NCBI GenBank assembly: GCA_964566925.1
Contig: CAZMIZ010000001.1
Span: 71,248 to 135,247, forward strand
DNA length: 64,000 nucleotides
Source: an uncultured Gammaproteobacteria bacterium
Lineage (GTDB): Bacteria > Patescibacteriota > Microgenomatia > PFEM01 > DATLAM01
Direction: 5' to 3'
Shown here piece by piece: positions 39,179 to 63,183 of the stretch; position 1 is the stretch's first letter; every line of letters starts with the position of its first letter. Under the pieces are notes generated by a model. It saw nothing but the letters and a program-made list of their open reading frames with translations, did not search any database and was not told the DNA's origin. Both the position numbers and the translations under genes were made by a program.

Positions 39179-39188
39179 TATTTGTCAA
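39160..39188 (-). promoter_or_regulatory. Sigma70-like promoter for hrcA operon: -35 TTGACA, 17-nt spacer, -10 TATAAG, overlapping CIRCE
   Basis: Minus-strand read: TTGACA (comp. 39183-39188), aatattagcagttgtgt, TATAAG (comp. 39160-39165). Confidence 0.45.
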
Positions 39189-40942: not shown

Positions 40943-41511
40943 TGAAAGAAAAAATAAAAATAGCTATTCTCATCTTTCTAGGTTTAATCCTGGCGCTCGG
41001 CTGTATCGCCTGGAGTTTGAAGGGCGAGTGGAAATTAATAAACCAAAACAGGATCGCTGAAATAATTCCCTCGGCTAAAAAAGAAATTCTCCCAGTCGTC
41101 TCCCTCGCCATCGACCCCCAGGAAAAGACCCTCTATCAGGGTGGTGATTTCACGGCTGACATCATGCTTGAAAGTGAAGAGGAACTCTTGGCAGTTGACC
41201 TTTTCCTTTCTTACGATCCCCAAATCCTTAGTCTAGAAAAAATAACACCAGGTAAGTTTTTCCCATCGCCTCAAGAATTTTCCAAAGAAATAAAAGAAGA
41301 GGAAGGGAAAATTTTCTACGCCCTTGGTTCTCTTTCGCCCACTAGTGGTAAAGGGATTCTTGTTTCTTTAACTTTTCAAGGCAAAATGAGCGGCGACCAA
41401 GGAACCGTTGGGCTAACCGAAGAAACTTTAGTCTCAACCAAAGGAGGGGAAGAAGTAAATATCGAGTTGTCGAGAGAGGGCCGATACTCTATACTAGAAC
41501 TAGTGAAATGA
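40942..41511 (+). CDS. N-terminally TM-anchored cohesin-domain protein
   Basis: …GGDFTADIMLESEEELLAVDLFLSYDPQILSLEKITPGKFF… matches the cohesin core (compare CipA …CDFVFRYDPNVLEIIGIDPGDII…). Confidence 0.6.
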   Translation: MKEKIKIAILIFLGLILALGCIAWSLKGEWKLINQNRIAEIIPSAKKEILPVVSLAIDPQEKTLYQGGDFTADIMLESEEELLAVDLFLSYDPQILSLEKITPGKFFPSPQEFSKEIKEEEGKIFYALGSLSPTSGKGILVSLTFQGKMSGDQGTVGLTEETLVSTKGGEEVNIELSREGRYSILELVK

Positions 41512-42317: not shown

Positions 42318-42326
42318 TCTCGGAAA

Positions 42327-43733: not shown

Positions 43734-45424
43734 GCAGCTTCCTCCAGGGGCGGCTCCGAAAGAGGTGGGGTTTTAGTTTCTCTAAGCCTCCATAAAAGTT
43801 TGACTAAAACTTTCAGCTCCTTAACCCTCAGAAGAAAAGTAAAAGTAAGGTAAAAAACTCCCCCTATCAAGGCCACCAAAAAAGTCAGATAGATTAAATT
43901 TAGAGTGTAGCGCGTATCCAAAACAAAACGATCGAAGCTGGTTGGTAAAACTAGCCCAAATCTGCCTAAAAAGGAAAGTTTTTTATCCCAAGCAGCGCGG
44001 TCAAGAATTTTTAAGAAGAAAAACATCGCCCCGCCGGAAACAAGAGAAGAAAAAAGAATTTTACTAAAAGGTAAAATTAGCTCCTTTTTCCCAAAGCCTC
44101 CAACTCGCCGATCAAGAAAGAAAAGGAGGGTTATTGCTTGAAGAACTGAACTTAAAGAAAAGGCAAGGGCTAAGCCCCAAATAGGCCAATGAAAAACCAA
44201 AACAAAGATGAAACCCAAAAAAATATTTAGGAAAATCGAAGCAATGGAAATCCTAACCGGTGTGACGGCGTCATGAAGGGCATAAAAAGCTCGATTAAGA
44301 AGATAAATTGTTGCTTGAGAAAATATTCCTAAAGAAAAAGCGGATAAAGCGTAACCTGTTTGGACAGTTGAAGTCCAGGTGAACCGAGCCGCCCCAAAAG
44401 TCAGCCGGACAATCGGAATTCGTAAAACAGCTAAAAGGACGGCACACGGAACCACTAAAAAAAGGATTTCGTTAAAAGAGGAGAGGAAAGTTTTTTTAAA
44501 TCGAATCAATTTTTTCTCTACCGCCTGATAAGAAAGCGTCGGCAGGGCAGCTTTAGCAATACTAATCCCAAATAGTCCCACTGGCAAAAGTTGAAGAGAA
44601 TCAGCAAAAGTAAAATAAGTATAAGCAGCCGTGGAAATCAATGAGGCTAAGAAAAGCTCAACACTTTTCCCTAGTTGAAGAAAAGAAAGTTCAATTACCC
44701 TCGGGAGAGCTAAGCGGCCAATCTCTTTTACTCCGGGATGAGAGAAATCTAAAACCTTTCGGAACCGAAAACCAAGATGGGAAGCCAAAGGAAGTTGGAT
44801 TAAAAAATGAAGAAAGGCGCCAATCAGGGCTCCAAGGGTAGGAGCGTAAATACCAAAAGAGTTTGAGAAAAAAACTGTCCCTAAAATGATCCCGAGATTA
44901 TAGAGTAAAGGCGCCAGGGCGGGCACAAGAAACCGCTGAAGCGATTCTAAGACTCCGGTTAAAAAATAACTTAAAACAAAAAACCCTTGGGCAAGGAGGA
45001 GAATTCTAGTCAAGGAAACAATTTGTTCCACCTGATCTGGAGTAAAACCGGCAGCGATCAATTGGTAAACCGGTTGAGCAAAAACGAAAACTAGAACGGC
45101 TAAAAGAGCAAAGATTAAGATGGCCAAATTAAGAGCAGCAGCAGCCACATACCAAGCCTCTTTCTTTTTCTTTTGAGAAAGATAACCAGTAAAAGTGGGA
45201 ATAAAAGCTGAAGAAAGAGCGCCAAAAACTAGAACCTCAAAGATGACTTCAGGAAGACGGAAAGCAGCAAAATAAATAGAGAGAGTCTCCACCGAGAAAA
45301 AGTGAGCCAGAACTCGATTGCGAACTAAACCTAAAACTCTCGAAGCAGCGATCATTACCATAATTACCGTCGCTGCTGAGAGAATTGTCGTTTGACGTCG
45401 GGTGAAAAAATTGGAACCAACCAT
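43730..45424 (-). CDS. murJ: Lipid II flippase MurJ/MviN
   Basis: A 14-TM MOP-family protein with a MurJ-like N-terminus (…SRVLGLVRNRVLAHFF…LSSAFIPTF). Confidence 0.75.
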   Translation of the reverse strand: MVGSNFFTRRQTTILSAATVIMVMIAASRVLGLVRNRVLAHFFSVETLSIYFAAFRLPEVIFEVLVFGALSSAFIPTFTGYLSQKKKKEAWYVAAAALNLAILIFALLAVLVFVFAQPVYQLIAAGFTPDQVEQIVSLTRILLLAQGFFVLSYFLTGVLESLQRFLVPALAPLLYNLGIILGTVFFSNSFGIYAPTLGALIGAFLHFLIQLPLASHLGFRFRKVLDFSHPGVKEIGRLALPRVIELSFLQLGKSVELFLASLISTAAYTYFTFADSLQLLPVGLFGISIAKAALPTLSYQAVEKKLIRFKKTFLSSFNEILFLVVPCAVLLAVLRIPIVRLTFGAARFTWTSTVQTGYALSAFSLGIFSQATIYLLNRAFYALHDAVTPVRISIASIFLNIFLGFIFVLVFHWPIWGLALAFSLSSVLQAITLLFFLDRRVGGFGKKELILPFSKILFSSLVSGGAMFFFLKILDRAAWDKKLSFLGRFGLVLPTSFDRFVLDTRYTLNLIYLTFLVALIGGVFYLTFTFLLRVKELKVLVKLLWRLRETKTPPLSEPPLEEAA

Positions 45425-45815: not shown

Positions 45816-45845
45816 TTGACAAAGCTTTCCTAAACAAGCTATACT
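45816..45845 (+). promoter_or_regulatory. Sigma70-like promoter for pilN: TTGACA-18-TATACT
   Basis: TTGACA 45816-45821, TATACT 45840-45845, ATG 45855; no obvious SD. Confidence 0.35.
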
Positions 45846-47075: not shown

Positions 47076-47387
47076 ATGAAAAAAAGATATTGGAACCGAG
47101 ACCTTTTGATCTTATCAATTTTAACCGTTATTACTGTCTTTAGCTGGGTTACTTTCGAGGTCTATCGAGCCCTTACTCAAATCGAAATCCCCGCTGTTCT
47201 CAAACAACAAATTGAACCACTTAACCCTACTGTTCAAACAGAAATCATCCAAGGTTTAAAGTTAAGAAAATCTTTTTCTACCGACGAGTTGGTTTCTCCC
47301 TCTAACTTACCCGGGCCCAGCCTCGAAGAAGAAACCACGGCAGCCACAGAAAGCAGTGAGGGAGAGGAAGTTTCGGTTATTGATTAA
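47076..47387 (+). CDS. Small bitopic protein with acidic C-terminus
   Basis: N-terminal TM; overlaps the next gene by 32 nt. Confidence 0.35.
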   Translation: MKKRYWNRDLLILSILTVITVFSWVTFEVYRALTQIEIPAVLKQQIEPLNPTVQTEIIQGLKLRKSFSTDELVSPSNLPGPSLEEETTAATESSEGEEVSVID

Positions 47388-48780
47388 AACCTTTATTATT
47401 AATAAAGGAGGTTCTTTGTTAAAAATAAGACGATTCCCCACGATTATCGGGCTCTTAATTCTTTTAGCTGGCTTAGGCGGGGGCCTCTTTTTGGTCCAAA
47501 AAGCTCAAACATTTTTTCTAAGAGCCGAACCTGGAAGTGCTCCTAACCAAATAAGAATTACTAACATTACTGATCAAAGTTTTACTGTTTCTTGGACGAC
47601 CGATAAAAAGGTGGCTGGCCTGATTCAGTTTGGAGAAACATCTAGATTGGGTTCCGTTCTCGCTGACGATCGCGATCAGCAAGCCGGAGAGATCAGCTTG
47701 TTCTTCACCCACTACGTCACGATCAAAAATCTCAAGGCAGAGACTGATTATTATTTCAAAATTCGCTCCGGCTCAAAAATTTATGATCAAAACGGCCAGC
47801 CTTATCAAACCACCACTGCTCCTACAATCAGTTTCTCTTCGCCCCCAAACGATCCTGCCTATGGAAAGGTAATTGACCAGAGCGGGCAATCAGCCCAAGG
47901 AGCAATCGTTTATCTTTCCCTCGCCAACACGACCCCCCAATCAGCCCTAGTCCAAGAATCAGGTAATTGGGTCATCTCTCTTAATTCGGCTCGATCAGTT
48001 GACCTCAGTTCTTACGCAACCTATGACAAGGCGGCTTCAATAGAAGAAATCCTTGTTCAAGCCGAACAGGGCCTAACAGCCACAGCGGTCACCACCACTA
48101 AAAACGATAGTCCTGTCCCCACCATCACTCTGGGACAGAATTATAATTTTAGGCAAACCAGTGAAGAGTTAGAAATAACCGATCAAGAGAAAAAGGTTAC
48201 CCAAGAAGCGACCCAAGAAGCAAGCCCAACCCCCACTCCAACTTCAGGTTTTTCAGTGGAGTCACCAGAAGCTACCACGTCCCAAGAGTTAGCCATTATT
48301 AATCCGGATGAAGAGGAAGATGTTAATACCCAAAAACCGGCTATTCTAGGAACGGGACCAGCGGGAATTACGCTGGAAATCACTATTGAGTCTACCTCCA
48401 CCTATACCGGAACGGTGACTATTGATGATCAAGGAAATTGGGAGTGGAGTCCGCCTGTTGATCTAGAACCAGGCGAACATACCGTAACCGCTACCTTCAC
48501 CGATGAAGAAGGTAAGAAACATACCGTCAGTCACACTTTTGTTGTCTTGGCAGCTGGCAAAGATGAAGCTCCAGCTATAGAAGCAACCCCTTCGGCTGAA
48601 GCCAGCCCGTCACCAACCCTCACCCCCACTCCAATTCCCGCCACTAGAACCGCCATTCCTTCTACAGAAGGAGGTGTTCCCGATTCTGGATACTTGACAC
48701 CCACTTTCTTAGTCTTCATAATGGGTTTAGGACTTATTTTGATCGGTTTTGTTATAAAGAAGTTCGCTGCCCATGGATGA
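47356..48780 (+). CDS. Surface protein with N-terminal TM, Fn3-like domain, Ig-like region and C-terminal TM/KK anchor
   Basis: Fn3 signature IRITNITDQSFTVSWTT…YYFKIRS; C-terminus …TEGGVPDSGYLTPTFLVFIMGLGLILIGFVIKKF. Confidence 0.45.
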   Translation: MRERKFRLLIKTFIINKGGSLLKIRRFPTIIGLLILLAGLGGGLFLVQKAQTFFLRAEPGSAPNQIRITNITDQSFTVSWTTDKKVAGLIQFGETSRLGSVLADDRDQQAGEISLFFTHYVTIKNLKAETDYYFKIRSGSKIYDQNGQPYQTTTAPTISFSSPPNDPAYGKVIDQSGQSAQGAIVYLSLANTTPQSALVQESGNWVISLNSARSVDLSSYATYDKAASIEEILVQAEQGLTATAVTTTKNDSPVPTITLGQNYNFRQTSEELEITDQEKKVTQEATQEASPTPTPTSGFSVESPEATTSQELAIINPDEEEDVNTQKPAILGTGPAGITLEITIESTSTYTGTVTIDDQGNWEWSPPVDLEPGEHTVTATFTDEEGKKHTVSHTFVVLAAGKDEAPAIEATPSAEASPSPTLTPTPIPATRTAIPSTEGGVPDSGYLTPTFLVFIMGLGLILIGFVIKKFAAHG

Positions 48781-50416: not shown

Positions 50417-51034
50417 ATGGAAAATTTAAAGAAAAATTGGCTTTTAATTCTAACTGGGGCAACCACCGTTGTTTTGGGAATGATTGCGGTGGTCACCGCC
50501 ATTAAGCTTTATCAAATCGGAAAAGAACCAGTGGCCCCCACTGCCCCAGCCCCAGCCCCAGCTCAAGAAATAACCCCGACTCCTGAGTTGCCTTGTACCT
50601 ATAGTTTTTGTCTTGCTAGCCCAACCCCCACCGAAACCCCAACCGAAACACCAACCGAGACGCCAACGGAGACGCCAACTTCAACCCCTATTCCTGAATG
50701 TTGGGACACCTGTGAAAATGATGATGACTGTCCTGATGAATTGAGCTGTGAAGAGGTGGAAACAGATGTTTTCCGCTGCGCTAATCCTGATTGTCCTGAA
50801 GAAGAAGACTGTGAATGTCCAACCGAAACACCAACCGAGACGCCGACGGAAACCCCGACAGGAACAGTGACCGAAACCCCAACCGAGACGCCGACAGGAA
50901 CAATAGTGTCGACCGCGACACCCACTTATGTTGCTGAAGCTGAACTGCCTGAAGCGGGTATCAGCTGGCCCACTATCGGTGGCCTACTTGGAGGCGTTCT
51001 CATTCTCGTCATTTCTATTCTCCTTGCCTTCTAA
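50417..51034 (+). CDS. TETPTE-repeat, Cys-rich surface protein with C-terminal LPEAG sorting signal
   Basis: N-terminal TM; (TETP)n repeats flank CWDTCENDDDCPDELSCEE…CPEEEDCEC; C-terminal AELPEAG (50945-50959) with a hydrophobic tail. Confidence 0.55.
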   Translation: MENLKKNWLLILTGATTVVLGMIAVVTAIKLYQIGKEPVAPTAPAPAPAQEITPTPELPCTYSFCLASPTPTETPTETPTETPTETPTSTPIPECWDTCENDDDCPDELSCEEVETDVFRCANPDCPEEEDCECPTETPTETPTETPTGTVTETPTETPTGTIVSTATPTYVAEAELPEAGISWPTIGGLLGGVLILVISILLAF

Positions 51035-51063: not shown

Positions 51064-52311
51064 ATGAGGGTGGCTATTGTTGGTGGCGGCTTTACTGGTT
51101 TAACGATCGCCTATCGACTTTCACAAAAAAGTCATCAGGTGGTTATCTTTGAAAAGGAAAGTCAAGTTGGCGGTCTAGCTAGCGGGTTTAAAAAGAGGGG
51201 CTGGGAATGGTCACTTGAGAAGTTTTTCCATCACCTTTTTACTTCGGATCAAGCAACCAAAGATTTAATTCAAGATTTAGGGCTTAACAAAAAGCTTTTC
51301 TATCTCCGGCCTAAAACTTCAATTTTCAAAAACGACAAAATTTTTCAGTTCGACTCACCCCTTTCTCTCTTAACTTCTCCTGATCTTTCAGTTTTAGAAA
51401 GAATGAGGGCTGGTTTAGCTCTGGCCTATCTCAAAACAACCCCCTTCTGGCAACCCCTAGAAAAAACGACTGCTTCTGCTTGGCTAACCAGAAACATGGG
51501 CAAAAACGCTTATCAGACCCTTTGGCAACCCCTGCTCCAAGGAAAATTCGGCGAGCTGGCTAACCAAATCCCTGCTTCCTGGTTTTGGGCGAGAATCAAG
51601 AAAAGAAGCACCAAGCTCGGCTATCTTCAGGGCGGCTTTCAGATTTTAATAGATAAACTAGCTGAAAGGGTGGAAAAAAACGGCGGGAAAATCTTCCTCA
51701 ATCATGAAGTTAAAAACCTTGAAGAGCTTAACAATTTTGACCAGATCATTATCACTGTCCCCGAAGAAACATTTTTAAAAATCACTTCTAATTTACCTAA
51801 AGATTATCAAAGCCAGCTGAAAAACTTTAAAATGTTAGGGGCGCTTAACCTGGTCTTAGTTCTAAAGGAAAGGTTTCTAACCGACAAGACCTACTGGCTG
51901 AATATCAACGAAGCGGAATTCCCTTTTGTGGCCGTAGTCGAACACACTAACTTCATTGACCCGAAATATTATGATGGTCAGAGAATCCTTTATGTTGGCG
52001 GCTATTATCCTCAAAATCACCGCTATCTTAACGCGAAAAAGGAACAAATTTTTAAGGAGTGGTTGCCTTATCTCCAAAAAATCAATCCTAAATTTAGCCA
52101 CCGCTCGACTCTCGCTTCTTATCTTTCAGTTAGTTTATTCGCTCAACCGGTTATCCCGATTAACTACTCAAAAACCATTCCTCAATTCAAAACACCTCTC
52201 CCCAATGTTTATCTAGCCAACATGCAAATGGTCTACCCTTGGGATCGGGGAGTCAATTATGCAATCGAGCTCGGAAAGAGGGCAGCTAATGAAATTCTCA
52301 AAGAAATTTAA
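51064..52311 (+). CDS. FAD-dependent enzyme resembling UDP-galactopyranose mutase (Glf); alternatively another member of the amine-oxidase/PPO superfamily
   Basis: VAIVGGGFTGL Rossmann fold; FFHHLFTSD (cf. Glf AHIFHTND); YQTLWQPLLQGKFGELANQIPASWFWARIK (cf. Glf YQALIKGYTEKQWG..ELPAFIIKRIP); YLQGGFQILIDKL (cf. YQGIPVGGYTKLIEKM). Confidence 0.45.
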   Translation: MRVAIVGGGFTGLTIAYRLSQKSHQVVIFEKESQVGGLASGFKKRGWEWSLEKFFHHLFTSDQATKDLIQDLGLNKKLFYLRPKTSIFKNDKIFQFDSPLSLLTSPDLSVLERMRAGLALAYLKTTPFWQPLEKTTASAWLTRNMGKNAYQTLWQPLLQGKFGELANQIPASWFWARIKKRSTKLGYLQGGFQILIDKLAERVEKNGGKIFLNHEVKNLEELNNFDQIIITVPEETFLKITSNLPKDYQSQLKNFKMLGALNLVLVLKERFLTDKTYWLNINEAEFPFVAVVEHTNFIDPKYYDGQRILYVGGYYPQNHRYLNAKKEQIFKEWLPYLQKINPKFSHRSTLASYLSVSLFAQPVIPINYSKTIPQFKTPLPNVYLANMQMVYPWDRGVNYAIELGKRAANEILKEI

Positions 52312-53962
52312 AAAAGGGTTAGCTTTTTTTAAAAAAAATTGGCCCGAGATAGTTCTCATTCTTATCTTCTTTCTTTTCTCTTGGTGGTTAATGTGGCACA
52401 CCTTTAATTATAAAGAGGGAACTATTTACGTTGCCTCAAAAGCTTGGAGCGACTTCGCCGCCAACATTCCTTTAATCCGCTCTTTTTCCTGGGGAAATAA
52501 TTTCCCCCCCGAATACCCTCTTTTCCCAGGCGAGCCAATCCGCTATCACTTTCTTTTCTATCTCTTGGTTGGTTTTCTAGAAAAAGTCCATCTTCCTCTT
52601 AGTTGGGCCTTAAACTTGCCTAGCTTCGTCGGGCTTGGGAGTCTCCTAGCGATGATTTATTTTTTCTCTAAATTTCTTTTTAAAAAACGAGGCGTGGCCT
52701 GCCTATCGGTCTTCTTCTTCCTTTTTAATGGCTCGCTTTCTTTCTTAGAATTCTTTCGTCAGCAACCTCTCTCTCTAGTCACGCCGTTGGAAATAATAGC
52801 CAATAAACAGTTTCCTTCTTTTGGGCCTTACGATGGTAAAATAGTCAGTGCCTTCTGGAACCTTAATATCTTTACTAATCAACGCCATCTAGCCGGTGCC
52901 TATACTCTTACTCTTTTTGTTGTCTATCTTCTGGTTCGCTCAGCCAAAACTAAAAAACGGCTGTCTTCTTGGCAAATTTTGATTTCAGGAATCATCTTTG
53001 GGCTACTTCCCTTTTACCACAAAGCTGTCTTCTTAATGTTGGGGGTAATCATGGTTTGGCTTTCGCTATGCCTTCCTAAATTGCGACCGTCAATCTTTTT
53101 CAGTTTAATGATTGGTGGTATTTTAGCCCTCCCTCAGGTCCTTTATCAGTTAAAGGGTACTCAGTCATTTTTCGTAATCAACCCCGGCTATTTAGTTGAT
53201 CGGCCTTTAACTATTCCTAAATTTCTTACTTATTGGTTTTTCAATCTTGGTTTAGGGATGTTTTTGATCCCGCTTGGTTTTCTTTTTTCAAAAAAAATTG
53301 CCAAAAAAATCCTAGCCGGCTTTTTTCTCCTGTTTCTAATTGGTAATTTATTCCAATTCTCTCCGGAGATGGCGGCTAACCATAAATTTTTCAACCTCTT
53401 TTTGATTGTCGGCAATATGTTCTCTGCTTGGGCGATCTATCATCTTTGGCGAAAAAATATCTTAGGAAAATCCCTGGTACCCATCCTGGTTTTCTTGCTT
53501 ATCTTTTCTGGAATGATTGACTTTTTCCCGATTAAAAACGATTCTCTGATGACCGTGGCTGATGCTCCAAAAAACCCGGATATCTTTTGGATTAAAGAAA
53601 ACACTCCGCCTGATGCTATTTTTTTAAACTCCTCTTATATCTATCATCCAGCCAGTTTGGCTGGCCGAAAAATTTTTCTTGGCTGGCCTTATTTTGCTTG
53701 GTCAGCTGGCTATGATACCTATCAACGGGATAAGCTAATAAAAGAGCTCTTCCAAGGGAAAAGCCAACTGGCCATCTGTTCTCAGCTCTTAGAAAATAAA
53801 ATCGACTACCTCGCTCTGGGGGCGAAAGGGAAAACTGATCTTCCCGTTAATTTTTCCTTTTTTGAAAAAAACTTTATTCCGGTCTATCAAAACCAAGAAA
53901 CCGAGTTAAGGATTTTCTCGGTTAACCAAAGTTGTTATCATTTTTCAAAGCAAGATGAATAA
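52259..53962 (+). CDS. Large polytopic membrane protein, putative GT-C-fold glycosyltransferase
   Basis: 567 aa with more than 10 TMs and a long first extracytoplasmic loop; overlaps the upstream gene. Confidence 0.35.
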   Translation: MQSSSERGQLMKFSKKFKKGLAFFKKNWPEIVLILIFFLFSWWLMWHTFNYKEGTIYVASKAWSDFAANIPLIRSFSWGNNFPPEYPLFPGEPIRYHFLFYLLVGFLEKVHLPLSWALNLPSFVGLGSLLAMIYFFSKFLFKKRGVACLSVFFFLFNGSLSFLEFFRQQPLSLVTPLEIIANKQFPSFGPYDGKIVSAFWNLNIFTNQRHLAGAYTLTLFVVYLLVRSAKTKKRLSSWQILISGIIFGLLPFYHKAVFLMLGVIMVWLSLCLPKLRPSIFFSLMIGGILALPQVLYQLKGTQSFFVINPGYLVDRPLTIPKFLTYWFFNLGLGMFLIPLGFLFSKKIAKKILAGFFLLFLIGNLFQFSPEMAANHKFFNLFLIVGNMFSAWAIYHLWRKNILGKSLVPILVFLLIFSGMIDFFPIKNDSLMTVADAPKNPDIFWIKENTPPDAIFLNSSYIYHPASLAGRKIFLGWPYFAWSAGYDTYQRDKLIKELFQGKSQLAICSQLLENKIDYLALGAKGKTDLPVNFSFFEKNFIPVYQNQETELRIFSVNQSCYHFSKQDE

Positions 53963-55361
53963 ACTCCTTTTCTTTTCTCTTTCGTTCTTCTCGGTTTTAT
54001 TCCTACCTTTCAGAGGAGCGCTTCCTTATTTGGATGGCAACATTGACTTTGTCCAGGTAAACGATTTTTACGCCGGTGGTCTCAGCCAATATTTTCAGAA
54101 CTGGAACACGGTTCATCCCCCTCTCAAACTTATCTTAACCACTGTTTTTTTTCAGTTAACCGGATTAAATCCGTCTAGCTACATTCTGGTCGGCTTTCTT
54201 TTTGGTTTTCTTGGAATCATCGCTCTTTTCGCCTTATCCCGAACCCTTTTTAACTCCCAGGTAGCCGGGCTAAGCGCTTTTTTTCTGGCGACCTCACCTT
54301 TGTTTCTGTCCACCGGAATTTTTAGTTTGCGAGACTATCTTTTAACTGTCCTGATTCTGATTTCTTTGGCTTTTTATTCCCAGAGTAAATTTCTTGGCTG
54401 CGCTTTGACTCTTTCTTTGGCTATCTTAACTAAGGAAACCGGCTTAATTTTAGCAGGGATTATCCTGGCGATCGAAGCTCTTTACTTTATTAAAGCGTTG
54501 ACTAGAACCAAGCGGTTCAATCAAGGTTTTCACCTTTTTCTTTTTTTCATTCCTTTTTTTACTATTTCGGCCTGGCAGTTTTTCTTAAAAGCCAACCAAA
54601 AGACTTCTTGGAGCGAATGGCTTTTTACTGAAACCAGCAGCCAGGGAACCTATCAAACGATCCTTAATAACTTGATTACCTTCCGTTTTTTAAATCAGTA
54701 CGCTTACCAACATTGGCGGCAATTGTTCTTTCTAAATTTTAATTGGGTTTACTGGCTGATCACTTTAGGGGGAATTTTTCTCTTTCTCTTAAATAAAAAT
54801 CGCCGTCAGAGGATCGGAAAAAACCTGATTAAAGGAACCAAAAAAGCCAAAACCCTGCTCGTTATCAGTTTGTTTTTCTTTGGTTATCTTTTGACGGTCT
54901 TGAGTCTCCAAACCTTTACCATTCCCCGATATGCTTTACCTTTAATCCCTTTTCTTTTAATGACCACCGCATTGATGATCAGCCGGCTAATGATTAAGGG
55001 GCCAGTCTTTAAATGTGGTCTTTCCATTTTCCTTAGTCTAATGGTTTTTTTCAGCTTGTTTACTTCGCTTGATCCAGTATCTGTCAGTCTCTGGGGAAAA
55101 ACAGAAATTTTAGGAGAAAAACTTTACGCCCTGAACCATCATTTGGCTGGCAATGACGGTATCACCTATAATGTTCAGTACCTTTTCTTGGTTAAAAAGC
55201 GAACTAGAGAAATTTTAGCAGCTAACGAGCAGGCAAGACCAGTGGTTTCCAAAGAATGCCGTTGGCTTTTCCCAGACCCAAGAAACGATCAAAAAATGAT
55301 AATAATTTTACAACTGAAAAACTTGAACCAAACTAATCTTTGCCTATCAGAAAATGAATAG
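53955..55361 (+). CDS. Polytopic membrane protein, putative GT-C (PMT/ArnT-like) glycosyltransferase
   Basis: 468 aa, ~11 TMs; 8-nt overlaps on both sides. Confidence 0.35.
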   Translation: MNKLLFFSLSFFSVLFLPFRGALPYLDGNIDFVQVNDFYAGGLSQYFQNWNTVHPPLKLILTTVFFQLTGLNPSSYILVGFLFGFLGIIALFALSRTLFNSQVAGLSAFFLATSPLFLSTGIFSLRDYLLTVLILISLAFYSQSKFLGCALTLSLAILTKETGLILAGIILAIEALYFIKALTRTKRFNQGFHLFLFFIPFFTISAWQFFLKANQKTSWSEWLFTETSSQGTYQTILNNLITFRFLNQYAYQHWRQLFFLNFNWVYWLITLGGIFLFLLNKNRRQRIGKNLIKGTKKAKTLLVISLFFFGYLLTVLSLQTFTIPRYALPLIPFLLMTTALMISRLMIKGPVFKCGLSIFLSLMVFFSLFTSLDPVSVSLWGKTEILGEKLYALNHHLAGNDGITYNVQYLFLVKKRTREILAANEQARPVVSKECRWLFPDPRNDQKMIIILQLKNLNQTNLCLSENE

Positions 55362-57378
55362 CGATTTAATGATTGTTTTCTTTTGGTGGTTTTTACTTTT
55401 TATCCTGGGAATGGCTTTCCTTCCCTTAACTTTCCTTATCTTTCAAAAATTTTTAGATAAAGGCTATGCTTTTAGTAAGATCATTGGCCTTCTTTTTATC
55501 TCTTATTTTGTCTGGCTTTTGGGAAGCCTTAAAATCTTCCCCTTTTTCTCAGCCACTGCTTGGTTAATGGTGATTCTCTCCGTCATCGGCAACCTTTTTT
55601 TGCTTCAAAAAAACCGTCGTCTGTTCAGAAAGTTTTTCAGAGAAAGTGCGAAGATCTTCTTTTTTGAAGAAATTCTCTTTCTTTCTGCCTTAACTTTCTG
55701 GGCCTATATTCGCAGTTTCCAACCTAGCATTCAGGGGTTGGAAAAATTCATGGATTTTGGCTTTGTCAATTCTCTTCTCCGGACTCGCTTTTTCCCTCCC
55801 GCCGATATGTGGTTGGCTGGTGAAACCATTAACTATTACTATTTTGGTCATTTAATAAGTGCCGTTCTCACTAAATTATCAGGACTCAACCCCGCTCTTA
55901 CCTATAATCTAATGATCGCCACCCTATTTGCTTTTACCTTCACGGCTGGATTTTCCCTGGGGAGTGCCTTCGCTAGTCAGCTGAAGTTAAAGAAAAAGCG
56001 TCTTTTTCTGAGCGGAATAATGACTGCCCTTCTCCTCTCTTTAGGCGGCAACTTACACCCACTATATTATTGGTTTACTCATCAGGGTTTCGGTGGTTAT
56101 TGGTATCCTGACGCCACTAGATTTATTGTGGAAAAATTTGGGGCCATCGACAATACCATTCATGAATTCCCTTTGTACAGCTTCGTCGTTGCCGATCTGC
56201 ACGGGCATTTGATTAATCTACCCAATGTTCTCTTGATGCTGGCTTTAGCTTTTGTCATCAGTCAAAATCTGGACACCAAGAAAAAAATGATTGAGTTAAA
56301 ACGGGCAATTTTTCTTCTCGCCTTCTGTTTGGCAATCGCTTTCATGACTAATGCCTGGGACTATCCTATTTATCTTTTAGTCGCTGGGGGCGTCATTTTA
56401 CTCTTTAATTGGTTAAAGTGGCCCTGGAGAAAAGCTCTCATTAGGACAACGACCATTGGTTCTTTTTTGGTAGCTGGCAGCATTCTTTTTACCCTCCCTT
56501 TTCACCTTCATTTTAAAAGTATTGCCCAAGGGGTTGGTTTGGTTGATTTCCATTCTCCTCCCTGGATGCTTTTGGTTCTTTGGGGATTCCCTTTAACTAT
56601 CAGCCTAACTTTTTTGGTTTTCCTTTATTGGCAAAAAAGAAAACACCAATCAACTGATTATTTTATCCTCGTTCTTCTGGTTGTTTCCTGGTTTTTAATT
56701 CTCATTCCGGAGTTTGTTTATGTCAAAGATATCTACATTCATTCCCATCAACGAGCTAACACCGTGTTTAAGCTTACCTACCAAGCCTTCGTCATGTTCT
56801 CCTTGGCCGGGGGCTATGTCTTCATTAGAGCTCTCACCAGTCTTCGGCTTAAACTGAGGAGGTTCTTCTTCTTAATCATCTATTCATTCCTTTTGATTCC
56901 CATCTTTATTTATCCCTATTTTGCCATCCGCTCTTACTATAATCTTAAAAACTATCAAGGTCTTTACGGTCTCTCTTATCTTAAAACCAAATATTCCCAT
57001 GATTATCAGGCAATTCTTTGGTTAAATCAAAACGTTAAGGGCCAACCAGTTTTGGTGGAGGCTGTTGGCGAGAGCTACACTGACTTTGCTCGAGTTTCTG
57101 CTAATACTGGTTTGCCTGCGGTTTTGGGCTGGCGGGTTCATGAATGGCTCTGGCGCAGTTCCTTTGATGAACCGGGAAAAAGGACTGAAGAAATCCGCCA
57201 AATCTACGAGTCAGAAAGTTTAGAAGAAACCAAAAATCTCTTAGAAAAATATCAAGTCGAATATCTTTTTCTGGGAAGTTTAGAGAGAGAACAATACCCC
57301 CATCTTATAGAAGAAAAATTTGTCTGGCTGGGTAAGATGGTCTTTTCTTCAGGACCAACAAAAATCTACCAATTCTAG
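55354..57378 (+). CDS. Large polytopic membrane protein (674 aa), GT-C / DUF2298-like
   Basis: More than 12 TMs; loop motif EKFMDFGFVNSLLRTRFFPPADMWLAGETINYYYFGH; C-terminal soluble domain. Confidence 0.35.
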   Translation: MNSDLMIVFFWWFLLFILGMAFLPLTFLIFQKFLDKGYAFSKIIGLLFISYFVWLLGSLKIFPFFSATAWLMVILSVIGNLFLLQKNRRLFRKFFRESAKIFFFEEILFLSALTFWAYIRSFQPSIQGLEKFMDFGFVNSLLRTRFFPPADMWLAGETINYYYFGHLISAVLTKLSGLNPALTYNLMIATLFAFTFTAGFSLGSAFASQLKLKKKRLFLSGIMTALLLSLGGNLHPLYYWFTHQGFGGYWYPDATRFIVEKFGAIDNTIHEFPLYSFVVADLHGHLINLPNVLLMLALAFVISQNLDTKKKMIELKRAIFLLAFCLAIAFMTNAWDYPIYLLVAGGVILLFNWLKWPWRKALIRTTTIGSFLVAGSILFTLPFHLHFKSIAQGVGLVDFHSPPWMLLVLWGFPLTISLTFLVFLYWQKRKHQSTDYFILVLLVVSWFLILIPEFVYVKDIYIHSHQRANTVFKLTYQAFVMFSLAGGYVFIRALTSLRLKLRRFFFLIIYSFLLIPIFIYPYFAIRSYYNLKNYQGLYGLSYLKTKYSHDYQAILWLNQNVKGQPVLVEAVGESYTDFARVSANTGLPAVLGWRVHEWLWRSSFDEPGKRTEEIRQIYESESLEETKNLLEKYQVEYLFLGSLEREQYPHLIEEKFVWLGKMVFSSGPTKIYQF

Positions 57379-58460
57379 AGATCGCCTTTAATCAAGCCTG
57401 CCACAAAATCATGAACTTCTTCCCAGTTTCCACTCCGAGGCACTAAAACCCACTGACCGTCGTATTGATAAACCGGAGGATTAATTAAATAACCTTCTTC
57501 CTCCTCGGTGCCGCCATCTAAAACCTCTGTTCGTAAATTGTCTTGATTGAAACCTAAAATCAATTTAATAAAGCTGCCATATTCTGACTGGCTGATGTCC
57601 GTGTCAAAGCTATCACCAAAAACGTTCACCAGCTCAGCAATCCTTTTGGGGTTTAAGAGGGTTTGACTGGATAAAATTTTGTCTTTTAGAGCCAAAAGGA
57701 GTCTTTGCTGGCGTCGGGAGCGAGCAAAATCGGTTCCCTCATCACCCTCGGCGTTACGGCTCCGAACATACTTTAAGGCTCTTTCTCCATCCATCAATTG
57801 CTTGCCGGCGTCAAAATGAAGATATTCATAGCGGAGCTCTTCTGGTTCAGCCTCTTCCATTCCTGGAATAGGGTATTTATAGTCATCGAAAGTTCTTTCC
57901 ACTTCGATCTCAACCCCACCCAAAAGATCAATTGCCTTTTTAAAACCCTCAAAATTAATGAGAATCGCATAATGAACCGGCTGGTCCAGAATTTCAGAAA
58001 CCGCTCCTTTAGCTAAAACTAAACCGCCTCCTGACCGCTTTTCTTCGCCATAATGATAGGCAGTATTAATTTTGGCTCTCATGGAAGGAATCCAAATATC
58101 ACGGGGAAGCGAAAGCATTAAAGTATCACCTGTCGCCAGGTCAGTAGAAATAAAAATGATCGTGTCGGTTAAGTCAATTCCTTCATGACCAGCGCCCCCT
58201 GCTCCCAATAAAAGAATGTTTGTCCGGCCATCTGCTGAAGCTAAATCATGAGGGCTTTGGGTAAAAAGTGAAATGACAGCCGCTGGACCTTTAACCAAGG
58301 CGCCAAGAAAACGAAAAGCTGGCCGGGCCAATTGATAAAGGCCCATCGCTAAAATCAAGATGACCAAAATGGCTAAAAATCCTCTTATCAGAGGCAGATG
58401 TTTAGCCAACCGGCGCTTTATCTTAGAAAAAAACAAAGATGTTCGAGAATGGCGAACCAT
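57375..58460 (-). CDS. LytR-CpsA-Psr (LCP) family glycopolymer–peptidoglycan ligase
   Basis: N-terminal TM and LCP core …NILLLGAGG…DLTDTIIFIS…; convergent with the GT cluster. Confidence 0.75.
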   Translation of the reverse strand: MVRHSRTSLFFSKIKRRLAKHLPLIRGFLAILVILILAMGLYQLARPAFRFLGALVKGPAAVISLFTQSPHDLASADGRTNILLLGAGGAGHEGIDLTDTIIFISTDLATGDTLMLSLPRDIWIPSMRAKINTAYHYGEEKRSGGGLVLAKGAVSEILDQPVHYAILINFEGFKKAIDLLGGVEIEVERTFDDYKYPIPGMEEAEPEELRYEYLHFDAGKQLMDGERALKYVRSRNAEGDEGTDFARSRRQQRLLLALKDKILSSQTLLNPKRIAELVNVFGDSFDTDISQSEYGSFIKLILGFNQDNLRTEVLDGGTEEEEGYLINPPVYQYDGQWVLVPRSGNWEEVHDFVAGLIKGDL

Positions 58461-58466
58461 GATAGA

Positions 58467-60287
58467 ATGAACCTTGTGCTTGGTATTCTAACTCATCTTA
58501 ACCCTCCCCAGCAAGAAGCGGTGACTCACAAAGAAGGCCCGCTTCTGATTCTAGCTGGGGCTGGTTCAGGTAAAACCCGGGCCTTATCCTACCGGGTAGC
58601 CTATCTTATCAAAAAGGAAAAAATTAATCCAGAAAATATCCTTCTGGTAACTTTCACTAATAAGGCTGCTAACGAAATGAAAGAAAGAGTTAAAAACCTC
58701 GCTGGCCTTGTCCCTCCTTTAACCGGGACCTTTCATTCTTTTTGTGCCAAAATCTTAAGACGAGAGGGAAAACATGTCGGGATCCCCCCGGGTTATTTAA
58801 TTTATGATGAGGCTGATCAGCTAGACACGATTAAGTTGGCTTTTGAGAAGCTGGATATTTCGCCTAAGTATTTTAAACCGGCCTCGGTTCTAACGACCAT
58901 TTCTCAAGCTAAAAACGAGCTTATTTCTTCGACTGAATACCCTCAGTATGCCCAGGGTCATTTTCAAAAAACGGTTGCCAGAGTTTATCTTACTTATCAA
59001 CAGTTTCTCAAGCAATATGAGGCTTTGGATTTTGACGATTTACTCTTCGAAACAGTCAGGCTTTTTCAAAAGGAAGGCCAAGTTTTGGGAAAATACCAAA
59101 ATCGATTCAGATATATTTTGGTTGATGAATATCAGGATACTAACCGAGCCCAATATGTCTTAACCAAACTTTTAGCCAAAAGGTGGCGCAATCTTTGTGT
59201 TGTTGGGGATGCCTCTCAAGCCATTTACGGATGGCGGGGGGCTGATTACCGCAACCTTCTCAATCTTAAAAATGATTTTCGGGATCTAAAAATTGTGAAT
59301 TTAGAGCAAAATTATCGTTCAACTCAGACAATCTTGGATGGAGCCCGGGCCGTCATCTCCCAAAACACCACTCATCCTATCTTAGAGCTTTGGACCAAGA
59401 AAAAAGGCGGCGAAAAAATTGGTCTCTATGAAGCTAAAAGCGAGCTCGACGAAGCCGCTTTCGTCGTTAAAATCATCACGGGGCAAAAATTAACTAAGGG
59501 GACTAAATATTCCGACTTCGCTATTCTTTATCGGACTAACGCCCAATCGCGGGTTTTAGAAGAAGCCTTCTTACACGCCGGCATTCCTTATATTCTCGTC
59601 GGCGGGGTTCGCTTTTATGAAAGAAAGGAAATCAAGGATTGTCTCGCCTATCTTAGGCTTTTAGCTAATCCTAAAGATCAAGTCTCTTATAAGAGAATCG
59701 AAAAACTAGGGAAGGGGCGACTCAAGAAATTCTTAGATTTTGCTAAAAAATTCAATCCTAAAAAGTCTTCGACCATCAAAACCTTAGATAAAGTTCTTAA
59801 GGCCGCTGATTACCTTGATCTTTACGACCCTGAGAACGAAAAGGATTTAGCCCGACTGGAAAATATCAAGGAATTACGGTCGGTGGCCACGGAACTCGCT
59901 GATTTGACCCAGTTTTTAGAAAATGTGGCTTTAGTGGAACAAGAATATTTACCAGAACATCCGGCTAATCTGGCAGTTGGCGGGAAAAAGAAGAAAGAGG
60001 CAGTCACCCTGATGACCGCCCACGGAGCCAAAGGTTTGGAATTTCCCATCATTTTTATGGTGGGTATGGAGGAAGGTTTATTCCCCCACTCAAAGAGTAT
60101 GATGGAAAAGGATGAGCTAGAAGAAGAACGAAGGCTTTGTTATGTCGGGATGACTCGAGCTAAAGATAAACTCTATCTGACCTATGCTCGGCGCCGACTC
60201 TATTTTGGCCAGCGGACTAGTAACCCCATCTCGCGCTTTATTGCTGATATTCCTGAGCGCCTTCTTGAGGCCCACTCTGTAGCTTGA
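58467..60287 (+). CDS. pcrA: UvrD/PcrA-family SF1 DNA helicase (short form)
   Basis: MNLVLGILTHLNPPQQEAV…AGAGSGKT, DEYQDTN, and a VGD..QAIYGWRGA motif. Start moved from the track's 58398 to the ATG at 58467 to avoid overlapping the LCP start (58460). Confidence 0.8.
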   Translation: MNLVLGILTHLNPPQQEAVTHKEGPLLILAGAGSGKTRALSYRVAYLIKKEKINPENILLVTFTNKAANEMKERVKNLAGLVPPLTGTFHSFCAKILRREGKHVGIPPGYLIYDEADQLDTIKLAFEKLDISPKYFKPASVLTTISQAKNELISSTEYPQYAQGHFQKTVARVYLTYQQFLKQYEALDFDDLLFETVRLFQKEGQVLGKYQNRFRYILVDEYQDTNRAQYVLTKLLAKRWRNLCVVGDASQAIYGWRGADYRNLLNLKNDFRDLKIVNLEQNYRSTQTILDGARAVISQNTTHPILELWTKKKGGEKIGLYEAKSELDEAAFVVKIITGQKLTKGTKYSDFAILYRTNAQSRVLEEAFLHAGIPYILVGGVRFYERKEIKDCLAYLRLLANPKDQVSYKRIEKLGKGRLKKFLDFAKKFNPKKSSTIKTLDKVLKAADYLDLYDPENEKDLARLENIKELRSVATELADLTQFLENVALVEQEYLPEHPANLAVGGKKKKEAVTLMTAHGAKGLEFPIIFMVGMEEGLFPHSKSMMEKDELEEERRLCYVGMTRAKDKLYLTYARRRLYFGQRTSNPISRFIADIPERLLEAHSVA

Positions 60288-60885: not shown

Positions 60886-61397
60886 TCGCCACTACAACAA
60901 AAAGCTTGAGTGTAAAAAGAACATGGCGGACAAAAAGTCTGACGACAATCTCTTGGTTTTAAGTGGCGGTAGTCTCGTTTTGATTCATAAATTATCAACC
61001 TGGGATCACTGGCCACTACCTCTTTTAAATAGCCTTTAGGACAATCACAGCATTGATCGATCCTGATCGCCAAAAGACAATCACTCTTCGCCTGACAAAA
61101 CGGAAGCGGTTTAAGGTTTAAACTGAAAGGGATTTGAGGCCAAAAAACCAAAAGAAGGGCACCAACAACAGAAATGAAAGCTAAAATCATTTCTACTAAT
61201 AAAAGCGCTTTAATGAGGGGAGTGTGGGGAGCTTTAAGGCTAAAATCAATCGGCAGAAGACGACTATCAAAAGGCAACCAGCTAATGGGTTTCTCTCTCA
61301 TCCTCTTTATGATACCATAAAAAGAGAAATGCTCGTCAGGGAAGTCCAAGAGAAAGAAAAAAAGCGGTTCAATCAGGTGGCGACCCACCCCCTTCAA
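60846..61397 (-). CDS. Hypothetical Cys-rich (9 Cys) membrane-anchored protein; the real start is probably internal (~61190)
   Basis: …CQAKSDC…QCCDCPKG…DCRQTFCPPCSFYTQAFCCSGECQ. The 5' part of the ORF overlaps fem on the other strand. Confidence 0.3.
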   Translation of the reverse strand: MKGVGRHLIEPLFFFLLDFPDEHFSFYGIIKRMREKPISWLPFDSRLLPIDFSLKAPHTPLIKALLLVEMILAFISVVGALLLVFWPQIPFSLNLKPLPFCQAKSDCLLAIRIDQCCDCPKGYLKEVVASDPRLIIYESKRDYRHLKPRDCRQTFCPPCSFYTQAFCCSGECQGITLLGTISK

Positions 61398-62360
61398 TCT
61401 TGGGAGTGGGGCGAATTTCGGGAAAAAACCGGTAAAAAAGTCATTCGGCTAGGCCTCTTTGACGAAACAAAATTAAAAGCAGGCTATCAATTAACCGTCC
61501 ATCCCCTGCCTAAAACTGGCTACAATTTGCTTTATTTCCCTAAAGGCCCTATCCCTAACAAAATCATGCTCGAAACTCTAACTAAAGTGGGCCAGCAAGA
61601 ACAGGCCGTTCTCGTGAAGATGGAGCCCAATGTTGGTCGACCTCTAAGCCAAAGTCCTAGTGCCTTTAAAGAAATCCGAAACTTTCTCCTTGAAAATAGT
61701 TGTCGTCCAGGCCAACCCCTCTTTACCCCTTATACTTTTCGGCTTGATTTAACTAAAAAAGAAGAGGATCTTTTGGCGGCCATGAAGTCTAAAACTCGCT
61801 ACAATCTCCGCCTCTCCCAAAAACACGGGGTAGAAGTGATAGAAGATAATTCTCGAGAAGCCTTTGAAATTTATTTGAAGTTAATGATGGAAACTACCCA
61901 AAGACAAAAATTCTTTGCCCACACTCTAGATTACCACCGAAAAATGTGGGCGACACTTAACCCGGCCGGTATCGCCCATCTTCTTTTGGCTAAATGTAAG
62001 AATAAGGTCCTGGTAGCCTGGATTTTATTTACCTTCAACAAGGTCCTTTATTATCCTTACGGGGCTTCAACCAGAGAGCTTCGGGAAACGATGCCCTCCT
62101 ACGCAATGATGTGGCAAGCAATTAAGTTCGGCCAAAAAATGGGTTGCGAAACCTTTGATCTTTGGGGAACGCCTGGGCCGGACCCGAACCCTAAAGACCC
62201 CTGGTTTGGTTTTCACCGCTTCAAGCTCGGATTTGGGGCCCAGCTGATTGAATTCTTGGGCACTTGGGATCTCGTTATTAACCCCTACTTCTATCCTCTC
62301 TATAATCTGGCTAACAATCTTCGCTGGAAATTCTTGCGCCTGAAGTCTCGATTAATCTAA
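61329..62360 (+). CDS. FemAB/FemX-family peptidoglycan interpeptide-bridge aminoacyltransferase
   Basis: …HPLQSWEWGEFREKTG… N-terminus and a FemAB fold. The track start at 61224 is a GTG; ATG at 61329 is preferred. Confidence 0.6.
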   Translation: MLVREVQEKEKKRFNQVATHPLQSWEWGEFREKTGKKVIRLGLFDETKLKAGYQLTVHPLPKTGYNLLYFPKGPIPNKIMLETLTKVGQQEQAVLVKMEPNVGRPLSQSPSAFKEIRNFLLENSCRPGQPLFTPYTFRLDLTKKEEDLLAAMKSKTRYNLRLSQKHGVEVIEDNSREAFEIYLKLMMETTQRQKFFAHTLDYHRKMWATLNPAGIAHLLLAKCKNKVLVAWILFTFNKVLYYPYGASTRELRETMPSYAMMWQAIKFGQKMGCETFDLWGTPGPDPNPKDPWFGFHRFKLGFGAQLIEFLGTWDLVINPYFYPLYNLANNLRWKFLRLKSRLI

Positions 62361-62361
62361 A

Positions 62362-63183
62362 ATGGTTGATCTCAGACAGTCCCGGGAATACGCTCGCTAT
62401 CTGGCCCTCTTAGGCTGGATTGTCGAAAAGGCCGGCGGAAACTATTTCTATCTTCGCCGAATTCCCTTAACTCCTTTTTCAATTATTAAAGTCCAACGAC
62501 CCAGGAAAATCTCTTCTGAAAAAATTGATCAGCTGGCCAGAAAATATCGCGCTCTTACCGTTTATTTAGAACCAGACGTCAGCAAAACTAAAAATTGGAA
62601 ATTGGAAATTGAAAATTATAACTACCGCCTCGGGAAATCGCCTTTTCTCCCCACCAAAACTATCCAGCTTGATTTAACCCAATCAGAAGAAAAAATCTTG
62701 GCCCAAATGAAAAAAGATGCCAGATACAGCCTTAGGAAAGCAACAAAACTAGACATTAGAATACTAAGATTTAAGGAGATTGGGAAATTTTATCAAGCCT
62801 GGAAAAAATCGGTCAGCTGGCGAAGACATGTGCCCTCCTTAAAATCTCTTCAAGCTTTGAAAAGAGCCTTCGGCCAAAAAGCAATTTTCTTAACCACCGA
62901 TTTCCTGGCTGGCACAGTCGTCTTGATAGCTAATAAAAGCGCCTCCTATTTCTACGCCTTTACCTCAAAAAAGGGGCGGGAAAATTTTGCTCAATATCGG
63001 TTAGTTTGGGAAGCAATCAAGTTAGCTAAGAAACAAAGTTGTCAAATCTTTGATTTTGAGGGCATTTACGACAATCGCTTTCCCCAAAACTCATGGCAAG
63101 GCTTTTCTCATTTCAAAAAAAGTTTTGGAGGGAAAGAAATAAAGTACCCAGGGTGTTTAATAAAATACAGATTCCCTTTTTAA
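62362..63183 (+). CDS. Second FemAB-like transferase (short)
   Basis: Paralogous architecture to the upstream gene, starting 2 nt after its stop. Confidence 0.45.
   Translation: MVDLRQSREYARYLALLGWIVEKAGGNYFYLRRIPLTPFSIIKVQRPRKISSEKIDQLARKYRALTVYLEPDVSKTKNWKLEIENYNYRLGKSPFLPTKTIQLDLTQSEEKILAQMKKDARYSLRKATKLDIRILRFKEIGKFYQAWKKSVSWRRHVPSLKSLQALKRAFGQKAIFLTTDFLAGTVVLIANKSASYFYAFTSKKGRENFAQYRLVWEAIKLAKKQSCQIFDFEGIYDNRFPQNSWQGFSHFKKSFGGKEIKYPGCLIKYRFPF

Follow-up and report, generated by a model that had tools for sequence, protein, structure and literature searches.

The stretch analyzed here, a 64-kb window of contig CAZMIZ010000001.1 from a Microgenomates bacterium, carries at positions 51064–58460 five tightly packed genes, which encode a flavin adenine dinucleotide (FAD) flavoprotein of the PRK07233 family, three polytopic membrane proteins of the glycosyltransferase type C fold (GT-Cs) and a LytR-CpsA-Psr (LCP) glycopolymer transferase. 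From the open reading frames (ORFs), the predicted protein sequences, library scans of the window proteins and a comparison of related loci, we read these genes as an extracytoplasmic glycosylation module that would depend on lipid-linked sugar donors: a set of GT-Cs combined with a donor-tailoring flavoprotein and LCP. For this reading as a whole we estimate a probability of about 0.5, and we favor it because the gene set of the relatives matches the logic of pentofuranose-transferring systems and of mycobacterial arabinan synthesis. An original prediction had located all five ORFs correctly but had centered the locus on a UDP-galactopyranose mutase (UGM) and a galactofuranan-like polymer. 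The flavoprotein is not a UGM, and the interest of the locus lies in the coupling of flavoprotein, UbiA-type polyprenyl-phosphate phosphoribosyltransferase (PPPRS) and GT-Cs rather than in the galactofuranan idea.

The flavoprotein gene (51064–52311, plus strand) encodes a cytoplasmic protein of 415 aa, in which we counted no hydrophobic segment (0 or 1 in its relatives). In Pfam, Amino_oxidase (PF01593) matches residues 10–412 at 6e-29 and along the entire model (1–443 of 443); in NCBIfam, NF005560 (PRK07233) matches residues 1–413 (model positions 1–430 of 435) with 436.4 bits (cutoff 252), and the runners-up after this and two unnamed models are HpnE, protoporphyrinogen oxidase and CrtD/CrtI. 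A dinucleotide-binding motif of the GxGxxG type, VAIVGGGFTG, occupies residues 3–12. When the AlphaFold2 (AF2) model (pLDDT 88) was compared with known structures by Foldseek, the closest match was rice phytoene desaturase (5mog; E 2e-24, TM-score 0.81), succeeded within the top 50 by protoporphyrinogen oxidases together with two archaeal structural-genomics proteins and then by amine and monoamine oxidases; the phytoene desaturase and protoporphyrinogen oxidase matches range from E 2e-24 to 1e-22 with TM-scores of 0.77–0.81 (2ive: 0.79). Searched against the sequences of the PDB, the family profile finds PF1083 (2e-15), protoporphyrinogen oxidase (9e-13), phytoene desaturase (8e-11) and MAO-A (2e-10), and monoamine oxidase B can be aligned to it over the full length. 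The protein belongs to the amine-oxidase/phytoene-desaturase/protoporphyrinogen-oxidase superfamily, within which the PRK07233 equivalog has no assigned function. It shares with phytoene desaturase, protoporphyrinogen oxidase and monoamine oxidase the fold, the full-length domain match and the N-terminal GxGxxG FAD-binding motif, but it differs from them in its identity of just 15–17%, in having an NCBIfam equivalog of its own and in its glycosylation context. The family is large (1,290 clusters at 50% identity, E≤1e-30), and its invariant residues are H56, H57, D62, R177, K180, R181, E293, H294, N296, Y310, Y314, Y315, H319, D394 and R395. Roles in carotenoid or heme metabolism were set aside because library scans of the window proteins found no other gene of either pathway and because the context is consistently one of glycosylation; to our knowledge, both pathways are generally missing from genomes of the candidate phyla radiation (CPR).

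The three membrane proteins encoded next are of the GT-C type and not transporters, as had been proposed: PMT_2 and DUF2298 matches, hhalign and Foldseek all point this way, and each protein is polytopic with at least 8–9 hydrophobic segments in a crude count. The assignment is clearest for the third of them, a DUF2298/Chlor_Arch_YYY protein of 674 aa (55354–57378, plus strand), which is matched by PF10060 (DUF2298) at 2e-106 and by TIGR03662 with 525 bits (cutoff 300). Its AF2 model (pLDDT 80, pTM 0.87) contains about 13–14 long helices and has AftA as its best Foldseek match (8if8; E 7e-5, TM-scores 0.49/0.54), with DPY19, ArnT, AftD, Pmt1/2 and EmbA/B as further matches at probabilities of 0.94–1.00 and moderate TM-scores of 0.4–0.54, while transporters appear at probabilities of 0.15 or lower only. 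By this model the protein has a GT-C fold. It has an extracytoplasmic C-terminal domain and a conserved loop, LEKFMDFGF...PPADMW...INYYYFGH, in which E130 and D134 are invariant. The second membrane protein (53955–55361, plus strand; 468 aa) is of the PMT_2 type (PF13231 at 1.6e-8, 35.4 bits versus a cutoff of 26.1), with a weak precomputed match to the MptA_B_family and a weak match to ArnT (5ezm, E 0.29); D27, located just after the first transmembrane helix (TM1), and R325 are invariant in its family.

The first membrane protein (52289–53962, plus strand) is the most divergent. The public gene call places its start at 52289, which yields 557 aa, instead of the 567 aa of the longest ORF beginning at 52259. 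This 567-aa protein has no match in Pfam, NCBIfam or the PDB sequences, and neither it nor the 674-aa protein was matched in sequence and profile searches against the PDB. Profile–profile alignment with hhalign relates it to the DUF2298 alignment (97.1%, positions 17–554 versus 110–728), to the PMT_2-type alignment (97.3%) and to the PMT/PMT_2 'HPDE' family (92.5%); because the DUF2298 match covers nearly its whole length, we read it as a putative divergent DUF2298-like GT-C paralog. Its invariant Asp65 lies in the loop after TM1 (WSDF...IPLIRSF...PPEYP). In each of the three proteins, the loop that follows helix 1 of the GT-C module holds an invariant acidic residue: D65 in the 567-aa, D27 in the 468-aa and E130/D134 in the 674-aa protein. 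By the positive-inside rule these loops are predicted to lie outside the membrane, and we infer that the proteins would act there with polyprenyl-phosphate-sugar donors. PMT_2 is the only mannosyltransferase-type domain matched: Neither the PMT domain PF02366 nor MIR has a Pfam match in any window protein, and with 18 bits the match to the protein O-mannosyltransferase model NF058602 stays far below the cutoff of 800. In literature searches for DUF2298, TIGR03662, PRK07233 and PF10060 we found nothing functional; a Chloroflexi neighborhood of the order DUF2298-PMT2-Rossmann-PMT2 is listed in the appendix of one publication.

A scan of genomes returned 471 loci, the best 80 of which were analyzed; the linkage to GT-Cs was counted on the 78 Microgenomates loci. 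In 68 of these 78, the flavoprotein gene has a GT-C gene no more than 5 kb away, and the window and its relatives hold three to six GT-Cs per locus. The commonest gene order is surf474 – (TP-rich) – flavoprotein – one to four GT-Cs – DUF2298 – LCP (minus strand) – (TIM) – UvrD – FemAB, where surf474 and TP-rich denote a surface protein and a Thr/Pro-rich protein. The linkage is kept despite rearrangement, as in the Woesebacteria-type loci, where the flavoprotein is preceded by four or five PMT_2 genes and followed by GT2/GT4 genes. Just before the DUF2298 gene, the clusters of relatives can contain additional enzymes: a HAD-like protein of about 180 aa with an FDLDGI motif in 17 loci, an SDR epimerase in 11, a DUF362 protein in four, which in some Microgenomates loci takes the place of the SDR before the HAD gene, and in some relatives PAP2 phosphatases. 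The mycobacterial phosphatase Rv3807c belongs to the PAP2 family. For each protein of the locus, the nearest relatives come from metagenome-assembled genomes (MAGs) of Microgenomates/Patescibacteria. Many MAGs titled 'uncultured Gammaproteobacteria' (L001, L003, L005, L008, L011 and others), one titled Nevskiaceae and one titled Clostridia carry loci that are syntenic with and 50–60% identical to those of Microgenomates; the taxonomy in these titles appears to be mistaken.

A further neighbor of the flavoprotein gene in these relatives is a UbiA gene, which directly follows it in seven of the 80 loci and lies about 8.7 kb downstream in an eighth (L054). The best NCBIfam matches of these eight UbiAs are the decaprenyl-phosphate phosphoribosyltransferase models (E 1e-54 to 1e-57); across the genome and UbiA-side loci the E-values run from 1e-52 to 1e-66, and two UbiAs of the latter set exceed the curated cutoff. 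The search from the UbiA side uncovered more flavoprotein–UbiA pairs, among metagenome loci (L082, L084, L118) as well as in a diverged flavoprotein clade of the Roizmanbacteria type, in which UbiA is again the next gene although the context is another one (L100, L129, L161, L164, L165). In the five loci of this clade a surface protein (DUF11/CLIPPER) encoded on the minus strand precedes a triad of diverged flavoprotein, UbiA and a 441–903-aa protein without Pfam match, and a gene resembling type IV secretion system coupling proteins adjoins. Two further loci, L036 (flavoprotein without UbiA) and L104, share 4,307 identical bases and proved to be parts of the same 42,934-bp contig of Levybacteria RIFCSPLOWO2_01_FULL_38_21: There, the flavoprotein/GT-C/LCP cluster is preceded, at a distance of about 14 kb, by the series membrane GT2 – PMT_2 – WecA-like transferase (PF00953) – PPPRS UbiA. 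Gene fusions add to this picture. In P0461 (L168, 2941–5415) an N-terminal LPG_synthase_TM domain, which resembles the flippase part of MprF, is fused to the flavoprotein beside a GT2 gene; P0480 (L169, 8001–10508) carries an N-terminal extension of 400 aa of no recognized family and lies inside an AftD-like/PMT_2/GT2/radical-SAM cluster; and P0388 joins the flavoprotein domain to a C-terminal SAM methyltransferase. The fusion to the MprF-type domain beside GT2 and the cluster membership at L169 suggest a lipid-linked substrate. Separately, a PPPRS-like UbiA is directly followed by DUF362 in many metagenome loci, namely L124, L126–L128, L131, L135, L137, L143, L148, L149 and L158, which are mostly of high GC content and probably belong to other phyla; DUF362 is a further candidate for the tailoring of lipid-linked pentoses.

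On these grounds we propose the following course of events. At the cytoplasmic face of the membrane, the flavoprotein would tailor a donor intermediate linked to polyprenyl phosphate, and on the outer face the GT-Cs would use the resulting polyprenyl-phosphate-sugar donors to build or decorate a surface glycan. Since sister genomes place a UbiA resembling decaprenyl-phosphate phosphoribosyltransferase directly after the flavoprotein, our most specific guess is that polyprenyl-phospho-ribofuranose would be oxidized or epimerized to another pentofuranose such as arabinofuranose (Araf), which would make the flavoprotein a non-homologous counterpart of DprE1. This analogy is tentative, and we would sooner bet against it than on it. 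DprE1 is a VAO-fold enzyme; the fold of the flavoprotein is unlike that of DprE1 (FAD_binding_4/VAO), and no homology to DprE1/DprE2 was found. A strict two-enzyme model of the DprE1/DprE2 type was downgraded because SDR and flavoprotein do not consistently occur together. In its broader form, the proposal is that PRK07233 flavoproteins could constitute a new, DprE1-unrelated class of enzymes acting on polyprenyl-phospho-sugars, by which the donors of a CPR-wide set of DUF2298/PMT_2 GT-Cs would be diversified, the products in Microgenomates being an arabinan-like or other surface glycan with pentofuranose, or O-glycans on pili or surface proteins; this generalization is equally speculative.

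Several observations weigh against this proposal. Within the 64-kb window there is no UbiA, GT2, SDR, HAD/PAP2 phosphatase or GtrA-type flippase, so that neither the PPPRS nor the dedicated flippase (MATE or GtrA/SMR) nor the phosphoribose phosphatase of a three-component system is found there; the only gene of a flippase type nearby is murJ (43730–45424, minus strand). In most flavoprotein loci UbiA is not adjacent, and in many close relatives (L086, L088, L089, L091–L094, L099) the flavoprotein is lacking and UbiA stands in its position, with GT-Cs, PAP2 and DUF2298 after it. As each often occurs at a locus without the other, flavoprotein and UbiA are separable modules. The co-occurrence of SDR and flavoprotein is inconsistent, unlike that of DprE1 and DprE2, and GT2 genes and methyltransferases adjoin the flavoprotein gene as well, which fits a more general role. 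Moreover, the flavoprotein superfamily mostly catalyzes C–C desaturation or isomerization and C–N oxidation, the oxidation of an alcohol being atypical. Finally, the order LCP/TIM/UvrD/FemAB appears to be largely ancestral synteny: Because TIM, UvrD and FemAB are conserved alongside, the adjacency of LCP is a weak sign of shared function.

If the flavoprotein does not act on the sugar, it may act on the lipid. In the main rival explanation, it would saturate, desaturate or isomerize the isoprenoid chain of the polyprenyl phosphate carrier, in the manner of phytoene desaturase, CrtISO or RetSat, and thereby provide a dolichol-like or otherwise modified carrier preferred by these GT-Cs of archaeal/eukaryote-like type. 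The phytoene-desaturase-like fold speaks for such chemistry, with phytoene desaturase as the closest structure (TM-score 0.81) and HpnE, CrtD/CrtI and protoporphyrinogen oxidase as the named NCBIfam runners-up; the carrier lipid would also be the common factor in loci where the flavoprotein occurs with UbiA, with GT2 or without any donor synthase, and archaeal connections are visible in a GT-C paralog family of the relatives that resembles archaeal Agl23 and in the match of DUF2298 to TIGR03662, 'Chlor_Arch_YYY'. Yet a hydrocarbon tunnel would fit the many invariant polar and charged residues less well than a sugar-phosphate head group would, our literature searches revealed no precedent for a phytoene-desaturase-like bacterial polyprenol reductase, and the tight pairing with PPPRS-type UbiA in an unrelated context fits a pathway-specific role, so that we hold chain modification to be unlikely. 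Still less credit goes to the idea that the flavoprotein is unconnected with glycosylation and has been kept near the GT-Cs by ancestral gene order in small CPR genomes. The housekeeping genes TIM, UvrD/PcrA and FemAB do lie in the same syntenic block, and four loci (L032, L041, L049, L058) carry the flavoprotein without a recognized glycosylation gene nearby, L041 having DHODH/VKOR and YibE_F instead; but the linkage to GT-C, GT2 and UbiA persists through several rearrangements and clades, and also in the fusion of the flavoprotein to a flippase-like domain beside a GT2 gene.

The least probable of the explanations, and one to which we assign very little weight, is the original one: The flavoprotein would be a divergent UGM that supplies galactofuranose (Galf) for a galactofuranan- or arabinogalactan-like polymer, which the GT-Cs extend and LCP ligates to peptidoglycan. 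The sequence stretches quoted in its favor (FFHHLFTSD; YQTLW...GKFG...QIPA...RIK; YLQGGFQ) are indeed in the protein, but no UGM-specific match was found, and we read them as a likeness common to the wider flavoprotein superfamily. The UGM structure 1i8t is detectable as a remote relative in a single-sequence comparison (E 4.6e-4, residues 4–214), and one family member, P0076, has a precomputed match to PF03275 (GLF). For the window protein itself, however, Pfam gives no PF03275 match at E≤0.1 but an Amino_oxidase match along the full length; UGM chains align to the family profile at residues 2–72 only, that is, at the dinucleotide-binding fold (E 4e-6 or weaker), there being no reliable alignment outside this Rossmann segment; and the top 50 Foldseek matches comprise phytoene desaturase, protoporphyrinogen oxidases and monoamine oxidases without a single UGM. 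Phytoene desaturase and protoporphyrinogen oxidase outscore UGM in profile and structure comparisons alike, which for the flavoprotein is the very result that the original prediction had named as its refutation. From the genomic context, the frequent adjacency of GT2 genes in relatives and the LCP gene at the locus can be counted for a UGM, as can the neighborhood of M. tuberculosis glf, which includes glfT2, Rv3807c, ubiA and aftB. Against this, library scans of the window revealed neither GalE nor a GlfT-like gene, and the Galf transferases known so far are not GT-Cs but GT-A enzymes of the cytoplasm with UDP-Galf as donor. A UGM/galactofuranose core is not supported by Pfam, by the family profile or by Foldseek.

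Returning to the GT-C module, its acceptor can be sought in the genes upstream and in the LCP gene downstream. The segment 45855–51034 (plus strand) encodes PilN and PilO, then a protein of 103 aa, an FN3/Big_13 surface protein of 474 aa and two more proteins, one of 546 aa and a Thr/Pro-rich one of 205 aa, as derived from the ORFs and from Pfam matches to PilN, PilO, fn3 and Big_13. From pilN, which starts at 45855, to the 205-aa gene all are co-directional, with gaps of at most 30 nt or overlaps. The flavoprotein gene and the second gene overlap by 23 nt if the latter starts at 52289 (53 nt for the longest ORF), and the two other plus-strand junctions of the GT-C genes are overlaps of 8 nt each. 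Because strand and spacing are of this kind, the glycosylation genes are probably the distal part of a single long transcription unit that extends from pilN to the DUF2298 gene. The best promoter-like site is located at 45816–45845, just before pilN, although the promoter/terminator scan overall was not above shuffled expectation. In 53 of the 80 related loci, the order surf474 – (TP-rich) – flavoprotein is retained. The 205-aa protein (50417–51034) carries TPTETP repeats and terminates in LPEAG plus a hydrophobic tail, and the FN3/Big_13 protein (47356–48780) terminates in VPDSG, a transmembrane segment and KKFAAHG. Both ends resemble sortase-type sorting signals by sequence, and the two proteins may be anchored to the wall.

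The downstream gene (57375–58460, minus strand; 361 aa) is a genuine member of the LCP family, as originally assigned (PF03816 at 2.4e-29, 102.9 bits versus a cutoff of 24.6; TIGR00350 with 87 bits versus 62.3), and has one hydrophobic segment near the N-terminus as its membrane anchor. This gene and the DUF2298 gene converge, their stop codons sharing 4 nt, and the order DUF2298 – LCP (minus strand) recurs in 32 of the 80 related loci; at L089, LCP is missing between DUF2298 and UvrD. In the window, the LCP start lies about 6 nt from a divergent UvrD/PcrA helicase gene (58398–60287, 606 aa in the public call), and two tandem FemAB-family genes follow at 61224–63183; the order LCP-UvrD-FemAB is conserved across Microgenomates. 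For the acceptor we infer one of two: the Thr/Pro-rich surface proteins, which are candidates for glycosylation, or a wall polymer attached to peptidoglycan by LCP. The former, protein O-glycosylation, is suggested by the apparently co-transcribed pilus-associated and Thr/Pro-rich surface proteins and by the precedent of TfpW in Pseudomonas aeruginosa; the latter, decoration of a wall polymer, is suggested by loci that hold several GT-Cs and an LCP gene, by the AftA-like fold and by the WecA–UbiA locus in a relative.

Elsewhere in the window, a cellulosome-like set at 39182–43733 comprises a GH5/GH39-like hydrolase with a C-terminal dockerin (39182–40942), two cohesin-domain proteins (40942–41511 and 41508–42317) and a GH39 enzyme (42327–43733). 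In the company of housekeeping genes (AlaRS, FtsK), the minus strand encodes at 19260–21521 a 753-aa protein with weak similarity to Baseplate_J (E 1e-4).

The components of the locus come from known superfamilies; the association of flavoprotein, PPPRS and GT-Cs and its occurrence in the CPR were not found described in our literature searches, in line with the original statement that such a gene set has not been characterized in these bacteria. The envelopes of CPR/Patescibacteria are biochemically almost uncharacterized, and the locus type recurs across Microgenomates, where it couples two families without assigned function, PRK07233 and DUF2298, to the only known route to lipid-linked pentofuranoses. 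Should the flavoprotein tailor lipid-linked sugars, it would represent a new way of catalyzing a step that in mycobacteria is a validated drug target (DprE1), give DUF2298 a function and offer a clue to how CPR pili or cell walls are decorated, which is perhaps relevant to episymbiotic attachment.

The closest general scheme is that of the three-component pentofuranose systems, which combine a PPPRS and a HAD phosphatase, a flippase and a GT-C (GT136) with an optional epimerase, either SDR or DprE1/E2 (Kelly et al. 2024, PMC11127046); synthetic prenyl-phospho-pentofuranose substrates are already in use for them (PMC11127046). In the locus described here, GT-Cs likewise would be the final transferases, the sister loci hold a DPPRS-like UbiA, a HAD-like or PAP2 phosphatase and SDR, and the accessory tailoring genes likewise form modules that may be present or absent. 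It differs in that PPPRS, phosphatase and dedicated flippase are missing from the window, that each locus has three to six GT-Cs and not one, and that the accessory redox enzyme is a flavoprotein of the amine-oxidase/phytoene-desaturase fold, neither DprE1 nor SDR.

The parallel to mycobacterial arabinogalactan that the original prediction had drawn survives in part: An arabinan-type donor branch (UbiA, phosphatase, SDR) adjoins flavoprotein and GT-Cs in sister genomes, whereas the Glf/UGM element falls away and the window itself holds no donor genes. Compared with the mycobacterial pathway for the arabinan of arabinogalactan and lipoarabinomannan (LAM), the locus lacks sequence-level membership in the Emb/Aft families, the structural resemblance stays at TM-scores of 0.4–0.54, and the host belongs to the CPR; homologs of Glf/UGM, GlfT and DprE1/E2 were not found, and no genes of a mycolate-type envelope were recognized in the window. 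On the side of likeness, the DUF2298 model best matches AftA and also AftD and EmbA/B, relatives carry a DPPRS-like UbiA and PAP2 (compare Rv3806c and Rv3807c), an LCP gene is adjacent (compare Lcp1), and in one relative a WecA-like initiating transferase stands beside UbiA. A third comparison is offered by the arabinosylation of group IV pilins in P. aeruginosa, where the GT-C TfpW and genes of the decaprenyl-phospho-arabinose (DPA) pathway are encoded beside the pilin gene (bioRxiv 10.1101/2020.04.19.049825). Neither a pilin gene nor a homolog of TfpW or DprE1/E2 was identified in the window, but the two systems resemble each other in their layout: The GT-C genes of the window directly succeed those for PilN, PilO and Thr/Pro-rich surface proteins, and its relatives possess a lipid-linked pentofuranose donor pathway.

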